Origin: Clostridia bacterium
Lineage (GTDB): Bacteria > Bacillota > Clostridia > Oscillospirales > CAG-272
Reading direction: 5' to 3'
Length of the DNA stretch: 64,000 nt
Assembly: GCA_017454675.1 (NCBI GenBank)
Contig: JAFTCN010000053.1
Span: 4,853-68,852 of the forward strand
Shown piece by piece: positions 58,342-64,000 of this stretch. The notes beneath the pieces are model-generated. The model did no database searches and had not been told where the DNA came from. It saw only the letters and a program-made list of their open reading frames with translations. Position numbers and translations under genes: made by a program. Positions within the stretch are counted from its first letter, which is position 1; each line of letters opens with the position of its first letter.

Positions 58342-59046
58342 ATGAAAAAGCTGATAGGCTTCGACCTCGACGGCACGCTGTCACAGCACCGTTCACCTCT
58401 CCCCGCCGAAAACCGCGAACTGCTCGACCGTCTGGGAAAAAAATACAGCCTGGTCATGGTCGCAGCCGGCAACTGTCCGCGCGTATACGGACAGATGGAT
58501 CACTATCCGATCGACATAATAGGCAACTACGGGATGCAGGAGAGCACGGTAAAAGACGGGAGGTTCGAGATCATACGCACCGACTTTACCGAGCCGGACA
58601 GAGAATGCTTCCTCGCGGTCACGTCATACCTTCGGAAAAAATACGGGTATACCGAATACGCCGGCGACCCGGTGGAGTTCCACCAGTCGGGCATGGTGAC
58701 CTTCCCGCTGCTCGGCACCGCCGCGAAGATCGAAGACAAGCTCGTCTTCGACCCAGACAGGTCGAAGAGGCGCCGCATGTACGGCGAAGTCCTGGCGCTC
58801 TTCCCCAACTACTCGGTATACATAGGCGGGTCGTCTTCCTTCGATTTTTCGGCAAAGCGGTACAACAAATACGATTCGCTGATGAGATACGCCGCCGAAC
58901 ACGGATTCACGAAGGACGAGATCCTGTACGTCGGAGACGATTTCGGCGACGGAGGCGGCGACAGCCATATCCGGCTCTTCGGAATGGATTACGTCAGGGT
59001 CGACGACTACCGCAGAACGCCCGACCTTCTGCGTTTCCTGCTCTGA
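58342..59046 (+). CDS. HAD-IIB hydrolase, phosphomannomutase (PMM)-like
   Basis: FDLDGTL, GMVTF, IGGSSSFD, YNK, YVGDDFGDGGGD. Confidence 0.75.
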   Translation: MKKLIGFDLDGTLSQHRSPLPAENRELLDRLGKKYSLVMVAAGNCPRVYGQMDHYPIDIIGNYGMQESTVKDGRFEIIRTDFTEPDRECFLAVTSYLRKKYGYTEYAGDPVEFHQSGMVTFPLLGTAAKIEDKLVFDPDRSKRRRMYGEVLALFPNYSVYIGGSSSFDFSAKRYNKYDSLMRYAAEHGFTKDEILYVGDDFGDGGGDSHIRLFGMDYVRVDDYRRTPDLLRFLL

Positions 59047-59104
59047 ACCGGCAAGCGCGCATGGCTCGATGAGCAGTGCCGCTCATGCCTGGCGCAACGT
59101 CATA

Positions 59105-59149
59105 ATGTCACAGACCCCGGAAGATCCGATCTCCCGGGGTCTGTGACAT
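59105..59149. terminator. long hairpin between convergent operons (probable terminator)
   Basis: 16-bp perfect inverted repeat ATGTCACAGACCCCGG / CCGGGGTCTGTGACAT; U tracts weak. Confidence 0.6.
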
Positions 59150-59177
59150 ATTATCTTTGCAGAAAACCGGCTCACGC

Positions 59178-59918
59178 TCAGGAGCCGAGGTAGCGCGAGA
59201 GGAATTCCCTCGTTCGCTGCTGCTCAGGGGCACCGAAGATCTGCTCCGGACTTCCCTGCTCGGCGATGACCCCCGCGTCCATGAAGATCACCCTGTCGGA
59301 GACCTCCCTCGCGAAAGCCATCTCGTGCGTCACGACGAGCATCGTAAAGCCGGCGCCGGCGAGCCTTCTCATGACGTTCAGCACCTCGCCGACCATCTCC
59401 GGGTCGAGAGCAGAGGTCGGTTCGTCGAAGAGTATGACCTCGGGTCCCATCGAGAGCGTCCTCGCTATCGCGACACGCTGCTTCTGTCCGCCCGACAGCT
59501 GTCGCGGCCTCGCGTTGATGAACTGCTCCATCCCGACCTTCGACAGGTATTCCAGCGCGGTCTTCTCGGCATCGGCCCGGGTCTTTCCCAGGACCTTCAT
59601 CTGACCTGCGGTGCAGTTGCCGAGCGCTGTCATGTTGTCGAACAGGTTGAAAGACTGGAAGACCATCCCGACTTTCGCCCTGTACCGGCGGATGTTGAAG
59701 CTCTTTGATGATATATCCGTGCCGTGAAAGAGTATCTTTCCGTCGGTCGGCGTCTCGAGCAGATTTATGCATCTGAGCATGGTGCTCTTGCCCGAGCCGG
59801 AAGAGCCGATGATGCTCACGACCTCGCCCTTCTTCACTCCGAAGTTTATGTCGGACAGGACGGTGTTCTCGCCGAATTTCTTTTTCAGATGCCGAAGCTC
59901 GATCACAAAGTCATCCAT
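59178..59918 (-). CDS. polar amino acid ABC transporter ATP-binding protein (probably lysine)
   Basis: [44 protein letters not shown]. Confidence 0.93.
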
Positions 59919-60687
59919 GACGCTCCTCCTGCGGAACTCTTATCTCCGCCTCGGGATCCGACTGTGAACCGCATATGACGTAGTTTTCGGAGCCGCTAAG
60001 CTTCTTCTCCGCGAGACGGAGGAGTCTCGTCACGGTAAACGTCAGGATGAAGTAGATCACGCACACGACGAGATAGGTCTGGAAGCTCTGGAAATTCTGC
60101 CGCTTGATTATGCCGGCGAAATAGTAGAGTTCGGTGACGCCTATTACGTTCAGGACCGAGGTGTCCTTGATGTTGATGACGAACTCGTTGCTGACCGACG
60201 GCAGAATGTTCCGCATCACCTGCGGGATGATCACGTGCAGCATCGTCTGCGGATGGCTCATGCCGATCGAAAGCGCGCCTTCTGTCTGGCCGCGGTCGAT
60301 GGAGATGATACCGCCCCTTACGATCTCGGCCATATAAGCGCCGGTGTTGATGGAAACGATGAACATGCCCGACGGTATGAGAGGAAGCGTCGCGCCGCCG
60401 CTCGCGAAGGCGTATCCCCAGTATATGACCATCGCCTGGACCATCATCGGCGTTCCGCGGAAGACTTCCACGTAAGCCGCGATTATCCCCTTTACGGCCC
60501 TGTGAAGTCCGCGGAGAAAGCCGTTCCGCGACTCCGGAGCCGTCCTGATAACGCCGGTGAGCAAACCGATCACGAGACCCGCGACCGTGCCGACCAGCGA
60601 TATGAGCATCGTATAACCGACGCCTTTGAGCAGATAACCGTGATAGTCCGCGATTATAGCCGCGACGTCTGAAAAGAACTGTGCCAT
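59911..60687 (-). CDS. polar amino acid ABC transporter permease (probably lysine)
   Basis: [41 protein letters not shown]. Confidence 0.93.
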
Positions 60688-60719
60688 AGATCACACCACG
60701 CGGGAGAATCAGCCCGCTT

Positions 60720-61616
60720 TTATTTCTTGATAATCACAACGAGGTTAGACGAATAGTAAACGCTGCTGAAGTCGATCTCCTTCGCACGTTCTGCGGTGGG
60801 GCTCATCCCGGCGACAATGGCGTCGACGGTCCCGGCCTGGACGGCGGGGATGAGCGAATCCCACTCAAGCGCGTAGATCTCGAGCTTCATTCCGAGGCTG
60901 GCGGCGATGTACCGGGCGATCTGTACGTCGTAGCCGTTGGCATACCTTCCGGCGGCGGGCTGCCCGTTCGGTTCGTAGATCGCGACTGCTCCGGCGGAGG
61001 GAGTGCCGAGGTCGGTCCAGTTAAAGGGCTCGTACGCGCATTCCATCGCGACCTTCAGCGTCCCGACGGGGTTCTCGGGCTCGGCGGCGGAAACGGCGAG
61101 CTCGCCGATCTCCTTGCCGGCAGAGAGCTTAACCATCTGCTCCATGAGGGCGGCCCTCTGTTCGGTCGTGACCTTAGCCAGTGCCTCGTTGATCCTTGCA
61201 GTGAGCTCGGAGCCCTTTTTCAGGCCGACGGCGATGCCGGTATCGGCGTCGGTGGCCTCGAATCCGGTGTCGTTGTTGACGAAGTGCAGATAGTCGAGCG
61301 ATTCCTCACTGAGACATATGGCCAGGGCCGTCGGTTCCTCGGCGATGTAGCCGTCTATGGCTCCGCTCTTGAGTGCGATGAGCAGATCGGCGAATTCGGG
61401 GTAGGTCGAGCCCTGGACTTTGCTTATCTGATTCAGCGCGTCGGCGTGGAATGTGCCTGCCTGCGCGGCTATCTTGGCACCGGCGAGGTCGGCTATCGAC
61501 TTTGCTGCCGAGATGTTCTTCGCGCCGCCTCCTCCGCAGGATACGAGCGCGAGCATGAGGATCGCGAGCACCGCGCAGAGCGCGGCAGTGAGTGTACGTC
61601 TTCTTGTTGATCTCAT
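60720..61616 (-). CDS. family 3 substrate-binding lipoprotein (probably lysine), apparently circularly permuted
   Basis: Lipobox LVS-C27; LKVAMECAYEPFNW, GYDVQIA, WDSLIPA, AGMSPTAER, IDFS..YY all in the C-terminal half; downstream of a lysine riboswitch. Confidence 0.88.
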   Translation of the reverse strand: MRSTRRRTLTAALCAVLAILMLALVSCGGGGAKNISAAKSIADLAGAKIAAQAGTFHADALNQISKVQGSTYPEFADLLIALKSGAIDGYIAEEPTALAICLSEESLDYLHFVNNDTGFEATDADTGIAVGLKKGSELTARINEALAKVTTEQRAALMEQMVKLSAGKEIGELAVSAAEPENPVGTLKVAMECAYEPFNWTDLGTPSAGAVAIYEPNGQPAAGRYANGYDVQIARYIAASLGMKLEIYALEWDSLIPAVQAGTVDAIVAGMSPTAERAKEIDFSSVYYSSNLVVIIKK

Positions 61617-61665
61617 TTGTTTCTTCCCTCCGTGTATGTTTGAATTTTATGAATTCTCCGCCGGT

Positions 61666-61703
61666 AAAAAAGGGCCGGCCCGGATGAAGAACATCCGGAC
61701 CGG
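61666..61703 (-). terminator. riboswitch expression-platform terminator
   Basis: Minus strand CCGGTCCGGATG-ttctt-CATCCGGGCCGG-ccc-TTTTTT between aptamer and RBS. Confidence 0.75.
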
Positions 61704-61720
61704 AAATAATACCGGGTAAA

Positions 61721-61882
61721 GATAGCTCTCCACATAAAGTGACAGTTCGCGACATCTTCTGCCGCGCCCCAACCTCCCGCAGTGCAAAGATACGGGAGAT
61801 TTCGGCGAAAGATCCTTTCCCGGGGCATCACCGGCATCTGCCTGCCTCCGCTCCGGTAGTCATATCTTCCGCGACCTCTATC
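61721..61882 (-). ncRNA. lysine riboswitch (L-box) aptamer
   Basis: Minus strand GATAGAGGTCGCG...GAAAGG...GCCGAA...TGGG...ACTGTCAC-TTTAT-GTGGAGAGCTATC; P1 GATAG/CTATC, P2 GCGGAAGAT/ATCTTTCGC, P3 TCTCCCG/CGGGAGG. Confidence 0.9.
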
Positions 61883-61896
61883 GTTTTATTGCGGAT

Positions 61897-61925
61897 ATTA
61901 TAACGCGTAAGCCGCTGTTTGTCAA
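61897..61925 (-). promoter_or_regulatory. promoter of the riboswitch-controlled ABC operon
   Basis: Minus strand TTGACA, 17 bp, TATAAT. Confidence 0.85.
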
Positions 61926-61973
61926 CATTTTTTCTGTTTTTCTCACGTATCAACCCGCAAAACGAGACTTTTC

Positions 61974-62002
61974 TTGCATTTATCTTTAGAATATGATATA
62001 AT
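61974..62002 (+). promoter_or_regulatory. promoter of coaE
   Basis: TTGCAT, 17 bp, TGnTATAAT. Confidence 0.75.
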
Positions 62003-62037
62003 TATGATGTATTTTTGTGTCCAGGATGGTGGGGTTG

Positions 62038-62694
62038 ATGCAGATGACAGTTATCGGAGTGACCGGGCCCAGCGGAGCGGGAAAGTCTTTGTTCTGCTCA
62101 CGCTTCGCAGAAGCCGGCTACAGGGTGATCGACTGCGACGCCGTATACCATGAGATGATCTCCAGGCCTTCCCGCTGCGTCGCCGAGCTCTCCCGGGAGG
62201 AGAACTTCGGGCGCGGCATACTGCTCCCCGACGGATCGGTCGACAGACGGGCGCTGTCGCGCGAGGTCTTCGCAGGCACACCGGAAGCCGGGAAAAAGCT
62301 CGGCCTGCTCAACGCGATCACTCACAGACACGTGAGAACGAGCATTAAAAGGCGGCTGTCGCACCCGGGCAACAACCGGCGAGGATTCGTCATCGACGCT
62401 CCACTCCTCTTCCAGGCCGGTGTCGAAGCCGACTGCTGCCTCACGGTGGCCGTCCTTGCATCCGGGAAGATCCGGCTCGAGCGGCTGCGCGGGCGTGACG
62501 GCCTGCCCGACTCCGACCTGATGGCAAGACTCGGAGCCGCGCCGTCAGACGAATGGTATTCAGGTCTTGCCGACGTCACCGTTGTGAACGACGGCTCGCG
62601 TGGGAGGCTCTTCTCAGCCGCCGACGCGATAATGAAAATGATCGATGAAGGCAGGTCACCGGAAGAGATAAAGAAGGCGGCGGTGTCGGGATGA
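62038..62694 (+). CDS. coaE: dephospho-CoA kinase
   Basis: IGVTGPSGAGKS, IDCD, VDRRAL, LNAITH, IDAPLL, RL..RD; exact start uncertain (62038 or 62044). Confidence 0.9.
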   Translation: MQMTVIGVTGPSGAGKSLFCSRFAEAGYRVIDCDAVYHEMISRPSRCVAELSREENFGRGILLPDGSVDRRALSREVFAGTPEAGKKLGLLNAITHRHVRTSIKRRLSHPGNNRRGFVIDAPLLFQAGVEADCCLTVAVLASGKIRLERLRGRDGLPDSDLMARLGAAPSDEWYSGLADVTVVNDGSRGRLFSAADAIMKMIDEGRSPEEIKKAAVSG

Positions 62695-63269
62695 GCAGCA
62701 AAACGAGCGTGAGGAACAGCATAGCCGTCCTCGTCATAGTGCTGCTGTCGATAGCGGGCGGATTCATCTTCGACCGCGTCGCGAAAGAGGTAAAGAAAGA
62801 CAGATATCCGCGGGAGTTCGAAACGGAGGTCAGATCGAGCGCCGAGGCAAACGGACTCCCGGAGAACACCGCGTTCGCCTGTATAAAGCTCCGCTCCGAC
62901 TTCTCACCCGCCCTGCTCACGGAAGGCGACAGGGGCGACATGATAGGTCTCTTCCAGCTGACCGAATCCGACTATGTCAGGTATTTCGGGGGCGAACCGG
63001 GTTCGTCGGGACTGCTTTACGAGCCGGCGACGAACATCGAGACCGGCTGCAGGCTCGTGTCTGCGCTGTTCGAGAAGTACGCCGGCTGGGACGAGGTCTG
63101 GGCAGCGATGTACGCGGGAGAGAGCACGGTCGACGCCTGGCTGTCGTCGGGGCTCTATTCCGACGCCTCGGGAAGGCTGAAGACGGTACCCGACAGCAAA
63201 ACTGCTGACTATGTGAAGCGGATGAACGAGACAATTGAGAAATACGAGGAGCTCTACCCTTCGAAATAA
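62691..63269 (+). CDS. SLT-type lytic transglycosylase homologue lacking the catalytic Glu
   Basis: N-terminal TM; YP..F...V, IKLRSDF, GLFQL, L.EP.TNI..G, ending T.DYVKR; the coaE-slt pairing is common in Clostridia. Confidence 0.75.
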   Translation: MSSKTSVRNSIAVLVIVLLSIAGGFIFDRVAKEVKKDRYPREFETEVRSSAEANGLPENTAFACIKLRSDFSPALLTEGDRGDMIGLFQLTESDYVRYFGGEPGSSGLLYEPATNIETGCRLVSALFEKYAGWDEVWAAMYAGESTVDAWLSSGLYSDASGRLKTVPDSKTADYVKRMNETIEKYEELYPSK

Positions 63270-63328
63270 CCGCCGGAACGGAACGGTTACAGGATTCAAA
63301 TCTCATAAAGACAGAAAGCGAGAAAAAG

Positions 63329-64000
63329 ATGACACCTGAAGAGATCCGCGGACTGACATACACAAAAAAGTCCGCATACGAGCGCAAGCGCGGTGAAAGC
63401 TATCTTTCCGACATCGGGACATACGCCGAAGGATACATGAAGTTCCTCGATGAAGCCAAGACAGAGCGTGAGGCAGTCAGAGAAGCTGTACGGCTGGCCG
63501 AGGCCGCCGGCTGGAAAAAATTCTCCTTCGGAGACAGGATCGAGACCGGAGGAAAATACTACTACAACAACCGCGGGAAGAACCTCTTCCTCTTTGCGGT
63601 CGGAAGCCGTCCGCTGACCGAAGGCATCAGGATATCGGCAGCTCACATCGACTCCCCCCGAGTCGACCTCAAGCCGGTCCCGCTGTACGAGGACGGCGGC
63701 ATGTGCTTCCTTAAGACTCACTATTACGGCGGCATCAGAAAATATCAGTGGACGGCGACGCCGCTCGCCCTCCGCGGCAGGATCGTCCGGAAGGACGGGA
63801 CATCCGTCGACATCCGAATCGGCGAAGACGGAAGCGGAGACCCTGTCTTCTACATCAACGATCTGCTCCCTCACCTCTCCCACAAGGACGACTCGAGACC
63901 TCTCGCCGAGGCTGTGCCGGGGGAAAAGCTCAATCTGCTGGCGGGATCAAGACCGGTCCCCGGCGAGTCCGACGGCATAAAGCTCAACGTGCTCGGCATA
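63329..64000 (+). CDS. M18 family aminopeptidase (5' part, runs off the window)
   Basis: Not in the ORF track; manual translation from ATG 63329: MTPEEIRG...FLDEAKTEREAV...NNRGK...AAHIDSPRVDLKP...THYYGGIRKYQW...INDLLPHL. Confidence 0.9.
   Translation, partial: MTPEEIRGLTYTKKSAYERKRGESYLSDIGTYAEGYMKFLDEAKTEREAVREAVRLAEAAGWKKFSFGDRIETGGKYYYNNRGKNLFLFAVGSRPLTEGIRISAAHIDSPRVDLKPVPLYEDGGMCFLKTHYYGGIRKYQWTATPLALRGRIVRKDGTSVDIRIGEDGSGDPVFYINDLLPHLSHKDDSRPLAEAVPGEKLNLLAGSRPVPGESDGIKLNVLGI

Follow-up and report, generated by a model that had tools for sequence, protein, structure and literature searches.

Why does a binding protein of the family 3 type begin, behind its signal peptide, with what is normally its second lobe, and end with the strand that normally leads out of its first? 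The question is raised by a gene on the minus strand of a 64,000-nucleotide stretch of contig JAFTCN010000053.1 (the whole of which we call the window), from a Clostridia bacterium whose draft genome comprises 2.21 Mb and is 94.9% complete in 87 contigs. An earlier note on this DNA had read the gene as a circularly permuted family 3 substrate-binding protein (SBP) under a lysine riboswitch, and the permutation is borne out by reversed matches in BLASTP, against solved protein chains and with the NCBIfam profile TIGR01096. The swapped order is real, far beyond chance, and is not private to the window gene; it defines a clade present in hundreds of genomes. It is very probable, in our judgement, that the gene encodes the permuted binding protein of a polar-amino-acid importer controlled by a lysine riboswitch. 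The motifs quoted in the earlier note are present in the translation of the open reading frame (ORF), the parts of which are as follows.

60720-61616, minus strand: binding-protein ORF, 298 amino acids, ATG start, beginning MRSTRR, a predicted lipoprotein.
61626..61631, minus strand: ribosome-binding site GGAGGG, 9 nt 5' of the ATG, as read from the sequence.
61536..61616, minus strand: putative signal peptide and lipobox, residues 1-27, with LVSC at residues 24-27 and Cys27 as its last residue, from the translation.
61257..61517, minus strand: lobe 2, residues 34-120, N-terminus of the mature protein, placed by superposition on 6gpm and alignment with 4zv1.
61122..61256, minus strand: second hinge crossing and C-terminal part of lobe 1, residues 121-165, placed by BLASTP against P0137 (about residues 235-290).
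61062..61121, minus strand: linker from the old C-terminus to the old N-terminus, residues 166-185, without regular secondary structure in the model.
60723..61061, minus strand: N-terminal block of lobe 1 and first hinge strand, residues 186-298, now C-terminal, placed by Pfam and superposition.

Compared with P0137, a relative of canonical order, the window protein matches in two exchanged pieces: residues 187-298 correspond to P0137 residues 36-145 (55% identity, E 3e-39) and residues 38-172 to P0137 residues 152-290 (48% identity, E 1e-36). Among solved chains, phmmer aligns residues 204-298 with residues 10-104 of 4zv1 and residues 36-149 with its residues 107-217; 4ymx gives the same pattern, and lobe 2 of the window protein aligns with chain residues 107 onward of canonical SBPs. 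The earlier note had expected a hidden Markov model (HMM) search to return two partial matches in reversed order. TIGR01096 did so, in two stretches scoring 107.8 against a cut-off of 256.35, as did the solved chains; Pfam SBP_bac_3 (PF00497) returned one, 83.3 bits against a gathering threshold of 26.4, confined to residues 225-298 and profile positions 20-92 of 132. A collinear SBP_bac_3 match through N-terminal block, lobe 2 and C-terminal part was not found in the window protein with Pfam, and no NCBIfam equivalog matched it at its own cut-off. Canonical controls gave single collinear stretches (profile positions 13-123 in P0137 and 21-123 in P0121), and two other family 3 genes of the same genome are covered from 1 to 129 and from 2 to 130. 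No solved chain collinear with the permuted profile was found among the best 60 of 70 PDB matches. Tandem proteins are read through: residues 36-298 align in one stretch with residues 145-393 of P0122, two domains fused to a permease, spanning the domain junction, and 6h30 (the GlnPQ tandem) is matched in four stretches in the order expected for a permutant.

The joint is economical. Query residue 298 corresponds to residue 104 of 4zv1 and query residue 36 to residue 107, such that the cut costs about two canonical residues. The chain ends in NLVVIIKK, a strand that in canonical relatives, such as P0121 ('...NLVVICKKGSSISSANSIADLSGAKIAAQAGT') and P0137, continues into what has become the first segment of the mature protein, which places the cut just after the first hinge strand, as the earlier note proposed. 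In GlnBP and LAO the chain passes along this strand from lobe 1 to lobe 2; given this role and the small cost of the cut, it appears to have been kept as the C-terminus of the permutant. The linker of about 20 residues between the old termini, likewise anticipated, has its counterparts in the C-terminal tail and mature N-terminus of P0121 and in the inter-domain linker of the tandem P0122. Cys27 is invariant in both homologue alignments, A1 (20 sequences) and A2 (25 sequences). In A2, the residues S272, R277, T55 and E94 are either invariant or show conservation of 90% or more, and they align with the corresponding stretches of AncQR; from LAO and HisJ we take a Ser/Thr-x-x-Arg motif of lobe 1, with Gly-Thr and an acidic residue of lobe 2, to hold the alpha-carboxylate and alpha-amino groups of the ligand. 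The N-terminal block also contains a subfamily-specific insertion (residues ~199-227, nt ~60936-61022; NWTD...GAV.I....YANGYD), modelled as extra beta-strands, which is common to canonical relatives such as P0137 and which typical family 3 proteins lack.

Homologues were collected by searching 1.84 billion representatives and from two additional homologue searches, and arrangements were classed with one HMM of the N-terminal block (A, 108 positions) and one of the rest (B, 129 positions), the canonical order being AB and that of the window protein BA. Summed coverage by the half-domain HMMs is equal in permuted and canonical forms. The 120 best database homologues are 63-97% identical to the window protein over 88-100% of the query, and 117 of them are 288-299 amino acids long. 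A survey of species-representative genomes gave 599 pattern matches, of which 465 were confirmed by tblastn to encode a relative; B precedes A in each of the 80 loci kept, with an intact frame throughout, and the 13 metagenome loci show the BA order as well. By taxon label, 71 of the 80 BA loci belong to Bacillota, 68 to Clostridia and 37 to Oscillospiraceae. Four others (L016, L023, L026 and L046) come from bins labelled Collinsella, Bacteroidaceae, Alloprevotella and Escherichia coli, and probably represent mis-binned Clostridia contigs and not gene transfer. The 381 single-domain proteins retrieved, a set biased by the queries, comprise 190 BA, 119 of a second permuted layout termed c3 (B ~68-128, then A, then B 1-67), 70 canonical AB, and one each of two further layouts, c2 and c4. 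An even sample of 401 Clostridia genomes contained BA in 4 and a collinear canonical relative in about 48 (E 1e-30 or better); c3 as a collinear match was found in 0 of the 400 scored.

If the order is a property of a family, what does the protein do? The leader and the genes transcribed with it bear on this question.

61897..61925, minus strand: sigma-70-type promoter, TTGACA-17-TATAAT, 12 of 12 consensus positions (a consensus match only).
61715..61888, minus strand: lysine riboswitch aptamer RF00168, 111.5 bits against a gathering threshold of 30.
61665..61703, minus strand: expression platform, a 12-bp GC-rich hairpin with a U-run (intrinsic terminator), from the terminator scan.
59911..60687, minus strand: ATP-binding cassette (ABC) permease, 258 amino acids, polar-amino-acid type, BPD_transp_1 73.1 bits.
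59178..59918, minus strand: ABC ATPase, 246 amino acids, ABC_tran 127.9 bits.
59157..59188, minus strand: terminator-like hairpin at the operon end, from the terminator scan.

The riboswitch that the earlier note placed upstream of the gene is genuine and conserved together with it. The aptamer match is full length (model positions 1-182 of 182, E 6.2e-30) and the only lysine riboswitch match in the whole 2.21-Mb genome; the promoter is the sole promoter-like site within 58900-62100, where shuffled sequences averaged 1.3, and the terminator hairpin is present in both the minimum-free-energy and the centroid fold of the leader (z -3.63). We infer that the leader is a transcription-terminating OFF switch responding to lysine. 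The ORF is followed after 32 nt by the permease gene, which also matches TIGR01726 (HEQRo_perm_3TM) at 60.1 bits, over the NCBIfam cut-off of 42.2, and which overlaps the ATPase gene by 8 nt. NCBIfam assigns both partner genes to polar-amino-acid systems. The window protein is the only binding protein of the operon and, with P0137 as query, the only member of its subfamily found in the genome. Genes beyond the operon end are in convergent orientation. Matches to His_leader at 59021-59226 on both strands (34.2 and 26.2 against a gathering threshold of 49) are probably due to chance, since they are sub-threshold and overlap the hairpin of the bidirectional operon terminator. Upstream, the divergent neighbours on the plus strand (62017-64000) are CoaE, a dephospho-CoA kinase scoring 100.4 bits, a small protein with an SLT domain (27 bits) and an M18 aminopeptidase, represented by its start (94.2 bits).

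Both the switch and the transporter genes accompany the binding protein elsewhere. A same-strand lysine riboswitch lies directly upstream in 49 of the 50 permuted genome loci L001-L050, the single miss (L044) having only 65 nt of upstream sequence, and in 13 of 13 permuted metagenome loci, making 62 of 63 overall. It is also found at all seven c3 loci (L132-L138), which lie 5' of permease and ATPase genes, and at 21 of 30 loci of canonical relatives in Clostridia genomes; hence, lysine control appears to be older than the permutation and to mark the whole subfamily. Four canonical loci (L093, L094, L098 and L101) have frames of ~526-532 amino acids, long enough for a permease fusion, and a riboswitch match in 0 of 4. 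At six permuted loci (L010, L017, L020, L031, L038 and L041) a T-box leader is conserved on the opposite strand, ~1.7-2.3 kb upstream of the binding-protein gene. Where at least 1700 nt of downstream sequence is available (73 BA loci), a permease is encoded in 69 and an ATPase in 73; by tblastn, BA loci have the permease in 78 of 79 (median identity 77%) and the ATPase in 77 of 79, and the permease is also found near 29 of 30 canonical loci (62% median identity) and 6 of 7 c3 loci (59%).

The riboswitch linkage, and the permease and ATPase kept beside all arrangements, suggest that the system is most likely an L-lysine importer, shut off through aptamer and terminator. Proteins that bind arginine or lysine are among the best solved matches to the window protein by sequence and structure (4zv1, 4ymx, 3k4u and 6xks). 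The strongest alternative is that the permuted protein serves another ligand, such as arginine or ornithine, diaminopimelate or a lysine derivative, given that arginine, glutamine or several basic amino acids are the ligands of its closest solved relatives (AncQR 4zv1, 4ymx, TmArgBP) and that NCBIfam offers no equivalog at cut-off, TIGR01096 included. We regard this as unlikely, although it deserves more weight than any other competing explanation, for the riboswitch is tightly linked to canonical, BA and c3 forms alike, and lysine riboswitches are located mainly 5' of genes for lysine synthesis or uptake, according to the portion of PMC5584792 cited here.

Does the exchanged chain still describe a binding-protein fold? 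An AlphaFold2 model built from a 25-sequence alignment of permuted members has a mean predicted local distance difference test score (pLDDT) of 93.7 and a predicted template modelling score (pTM) of 0.84, and was compared with ~48,000 PDB representatives. The principal matches, with root-mean-square deviations (rmsd), are these.

6gpm, TmArgBP isolated domain 2: model 34-120 on chain 105-187, Z 10.2, rmsd 1.9 Å, 83 aligned of 92 chain residues.
7a99, TmArgBP isolated domain 1: model 183-293 on chain 7-98, Z 10.0, rmsd 1.9 Å, 92 aligned.
6xks, LAO domain A: model 183-292 on chain 2-94, Z 9.8, rmsd 1.6 Å, 90 aligned.
3k4u, lysine complex: model 183-290 on chain 1-89, Z 9.5, rmsd 1.6 Å, 89 aligned.
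2b4l, OpuAC of Bacillus subtilis: model 27-298 on chain 5-259, Z 10.4, rmsd 5.4 Å, 221 aligned.

The model predicts two alpha/beta lobes, each superposable on isolated canonical domains, in swapped order. Structure prediction had been proposed as a check in the earlier note, and its outcome is a confident model in which both lobes match canonical domains at 1.6-1.9 Å in that order. OpuAC is the best whole-chain match and the only chain collinear with the whole model. The signal peptide region is modelled as a helix (residues 3-25), residues 121-165 contain a strand at 127-132 and helices at 138-146 and 151-165, and the last element is a strand at 292-297. The linker has a block pLDDT of 95-98 despite its want of regular secondary structure. 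The ESM Atlas lists the sequence of the window protein and has no model for it. It would be only the second crossing (about residues 111-126) that continues into further chain, the terminal strand presumably packing at its end. A single continued crossing between the lobes could favour domain swapping, in which lobes from two chains would enclose the cleft in place of a monomeric flytrap, and isolated TmArgBP domains are stable as constructs, to judge by the entry names of 6gpm and 7a99; we nevertheless think a swapped dimer improbable, as the monomer is predicted with confidence as a compact two-lobed unit at the pTM given above.

A further possibility is that the gene is a decaying remnant of a tandem-domain protein, no longer capable of binding a substrate, and proteins of ABA and BAB composition do suggest partial deletions in the family. 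This is highly improbable: alignment columns average 74% identity with 20 homologues and 61% with 25, the GMSPTAER stretch and the AEEP and AQ.GT motifs are highly conserved, the frame is intact in 80 of 80 loci, the model is confident, a search with P0137 as query found no second subfamily member in the genome, and the operon has no other binding protein.

Sequencing runs were compared as contigs, and gaps in one of them (X15) and 'diverged' joints in another (X1) are uninformative. Contigs of two studies cover 60500-62000 unbroken, X1 (3410 nt, possibly the source) and X3 (5322 nt, 5 differences), and contigs of the RNA-library run X15 contain most of the gene at ≥99%. The earlier note had named a collapsed tandem-domain gene as a finding that would overturn its reading, and this is contradicted by the 80 loci together with the X3 contig, which comes from a different study. 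Although ABAB tandem forms occur in the family (P0122, P0133) and the window derives from a draft in 87 contigs, there is practically no chance that tandem or adjacent binding-protein genes were collapsed or mis-joined in assembly and that no permuted ORF exists in the cell, because the same order recurs at 80 of 80 loci of different species-level genomes and 13 metagenome loci, contigs from two studies run unbroken across the stretch, and the ORF, which lies 32 nt from the permease gene, is complete with a signal peptide, ribosome-binding site and stop of its own.

Several points weigh against the reading of this gene as the permuted binding protein of a lysine importer. Lysine as the ligand is argued from regulatory context alone, and 9 of the 30 canonical loci are without a riboswitch match. 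The genome contains lysA, so that lysine import would not be essential. The X15 contigs are no proof of transcription, DNA carry-over being possible. The fold is a prediction from a 25-sequence alignment, and Foldseek comparison with the PDB gave whole-chain template modelling scores of 0.29-0.40, with the 6h30 tandem first and OpuAC also leading. Such low scores are expected for a permutant, because a sequential aligner cannot show permutant equivalence, and they are not positive evidence.

With the reading we prefer, the gene product would be the lipid-anchored binding protein of a three-gene polar-amino-acid ABC importer, consisting of binding protein, permease and ATPase, which would take up L-lysine and be turned off by lysine through a transcription-terminating riboswitch. 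The two-lobed 'Venus flytrap' fold would be kept, with the chain running from Cys27 through lobe 2 into lobe 1, then through the linker of ~20 residues to the start of lobe 1, and its last element would be the strand by which canonical proteins pass from lobe 1 to lobe 2. In such a layout lobe 1 is continuous, the membrane anchor sits on lobe 2 and one of the two inter-lobe crossings is continued; it may also affect the mechanics of the hinge.

How the order was exchanged is suggested by proteins of other composition. Most probably, the mature part was duplicated in tandem and the outer halves were then lost, while the signal peptide was kept. Possible intermediates of duplication and truncation are ABAB-permease (P0122, P0133), ABA (P0273) and BAB (P0316, P0322) proteins; the two B halves of P0316 group with different lineages. 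P0121 (AB) and P0024 (BA) are ~80% identical and their signal peptides almost wholly identical, which indicates that the swap occurs downstream of a retained signal peptide.

BA is not the only outcome. In c3 (the P0136 family) the chain consists of the hinge-2 strand and C-terminal helices, followed by the N-terminal block and then lobe 2. The best 120 matches to P0136 share 58-100% identity with it, cover 90-100% of its length and come from contigs of up to 171 kb; its confident model (pLDDT 87.5) is collinear over residues 108-292 with canonical residues 1-170 and superposes on 3k4u with Z 14.4 and rmsd 2.6 Å (170 aligned). The 26 metagenome loci obtained with the c3 query comprise 7 c3, 13 BA and 6 partial or other loci (one b2-A fragment, two AB, two A-only and one unclassed). 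P0265 and P0202 are c3-like in a distant lineage, P0202 being fused to a permease. The c2 form, P0130, is cut at B27/28, inside lobe 2 after its first beta-alpha unit, and c4, P0362, near B99, before the C-terminal helices. All cut sites fall in loops of the predicted model. The BA and c3 cuts are the two borders of lobe 2; both leave lobe 1 contiguous and lobe 2 at a chain end. These two common permutants exchange a layout with one domain inserted in the other for two contiguous domains and shift the membrane tether, which may have been selected in tethered Gram-positive binding proteins.

Trees were calculated from the separately aligned halves with a quick IQ-TREE analysis, for which SH-aLRT values are the only support. 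All BA rows fall in one clade, within which the canonical-order P0121 and P0153 are nested (support 97-99); a clade of BA rows alone, a group named after the tree was seen, is rejected by an approximately unbiased (AU) test (p 8e-7). P0121 and P0153 look like back-permutations and are known from few short metagenome contigs, P0121 as 2 sequences on 3 contigs (≤1.8 kb) and P0153 on 1 contig; among the other rare forms, P0130 is found on 4 contigs of up to 52 kb and P0362 on 1. P0130 is sister to the canonical P0137 (support 97; 76% identity), P0265 and P0202 group with the canonical P0222 (support 99), and the main c3 clade (support 96) is sister to the canonical P0134 (support 90). A tree uniting the BA and main c3 clades is not rejected by the AU test (p 0.5), and so these two may share a permuted ancestor. 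To account for the cut sites, no fewer than four distinct rearrangements are needed, and probably more, with two reversions among them. We tentatively suggest, at somewhat less than even odds, that the lysine-riboswitch subfamily is a hot-spot in which circular permutation has recurred in nature, with at least four cut sites, nested canonical forms and duplication-like intermediates.

As a rule, circular permutation is deduced from the comparison of distant proteins. In the present case, a single functional family unites canonical, at least two abundant permuted, rare further permuted and apparent intermediate forms, which share the same riboswitch and transporter partners and whose halves are 50-80% identical. 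Such a family makes two questions testable with natural sequences: whether permutation proceeds by duplication and truncation, and what influence chain connectivity and the position of the tether have on Venus-flytrap opening and closing and on docking to the transporter. Profile-based annotation detects only half of each of these proteins. Furthermore, the new termini beside the hinge could serve sensor design.

Among known systems, the canonical family 3 proteins (PF00497, type II or cluster F), including LAO, ArtJ, TmArgBP, AncQR and the GlnPQ substrate-binding domains, are homologous to the window protein in both halves and have polar-amino-acid-type permease and ATPase partners, as in the window operon. 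The window protein differs from them in its swapped blocks, its lipid anchor on lobe 2 and its partial Pfam and NCBIfam matches. GlnPQ (6h30), P0122 and P0133 have two complete domains fused to a permease; the window protein reads collinearly across the junction of their tandem domains and amounts to exactly one domain's worth.

Rodionov et al. in 2003 reportedly predicted the lysX-lysY transporters by comparative genomics. In the available portion of PMC5584792, lysX-lysY are likewise lysine-riboswitch ABC transporters predicted by comparative genomics, with the riboswitch directly 5' of a glutamine/histidine-like importer in Firmicutes. The window system shares two features of this type, the same-strand riboswitch and the polar-amino-acid permease and ATPase in one operon; its binding protein, however, is a separate lipoprotein gene, and a permuted binding protein is not mentioned for lysX-lysY in that portion of the article.

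Natural permutation of binding proteins has been described in other settings. OpuAC of B. subtilis and ProX are related by circular permutation among glycine-betaine binding proteins, within the type II fold, as stated in an excerpt of PMC2395249. The chain topology of OpuAC is collinear with the window model; at an rmsd of 5.4 Å and 11% identity the resemblance is in chain topology only, and no Pfam match to the OpuAC family (PF04069) was found in the window protein at E up to 0.1. OpuAC and ProX represent distant families of <24% identity (same excerpt), whereas the canonical and permuted forms of the window subfamily are much closer and share their regulation. TpMglB-2 (Tp0684) of Treponema pallidum, designated 'Type Ic / Cluster Bc', is a natural permutant that serves an ABC importer, is lipid-tethered and retains ligand binding, and its homologues are mainly from organisms with tethered binding proteins, according to an extract of PMC4990184. 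That protein has the type I (sugar) fold, in which the permutation adds a fourth crossing, and poor conservation of its permuted part led to a different gene origin being considered (same extract); in the window subfamily, by contrast, homology is plain in both halves and intermediates can be seen. A permuted family 3 amino-acid binding protein, or multiple cut sites in one family, was not described in the full-text literature searched, which leaves subscription journals outside. Permutation of binding proteins in nature is thus already known from OpuAC/ProX and TpMglB-2, and the window protein is ordinary in function; what is unusual is that canonical, permuted and intermediate forms so closely related share a single setting of regulation and transport.

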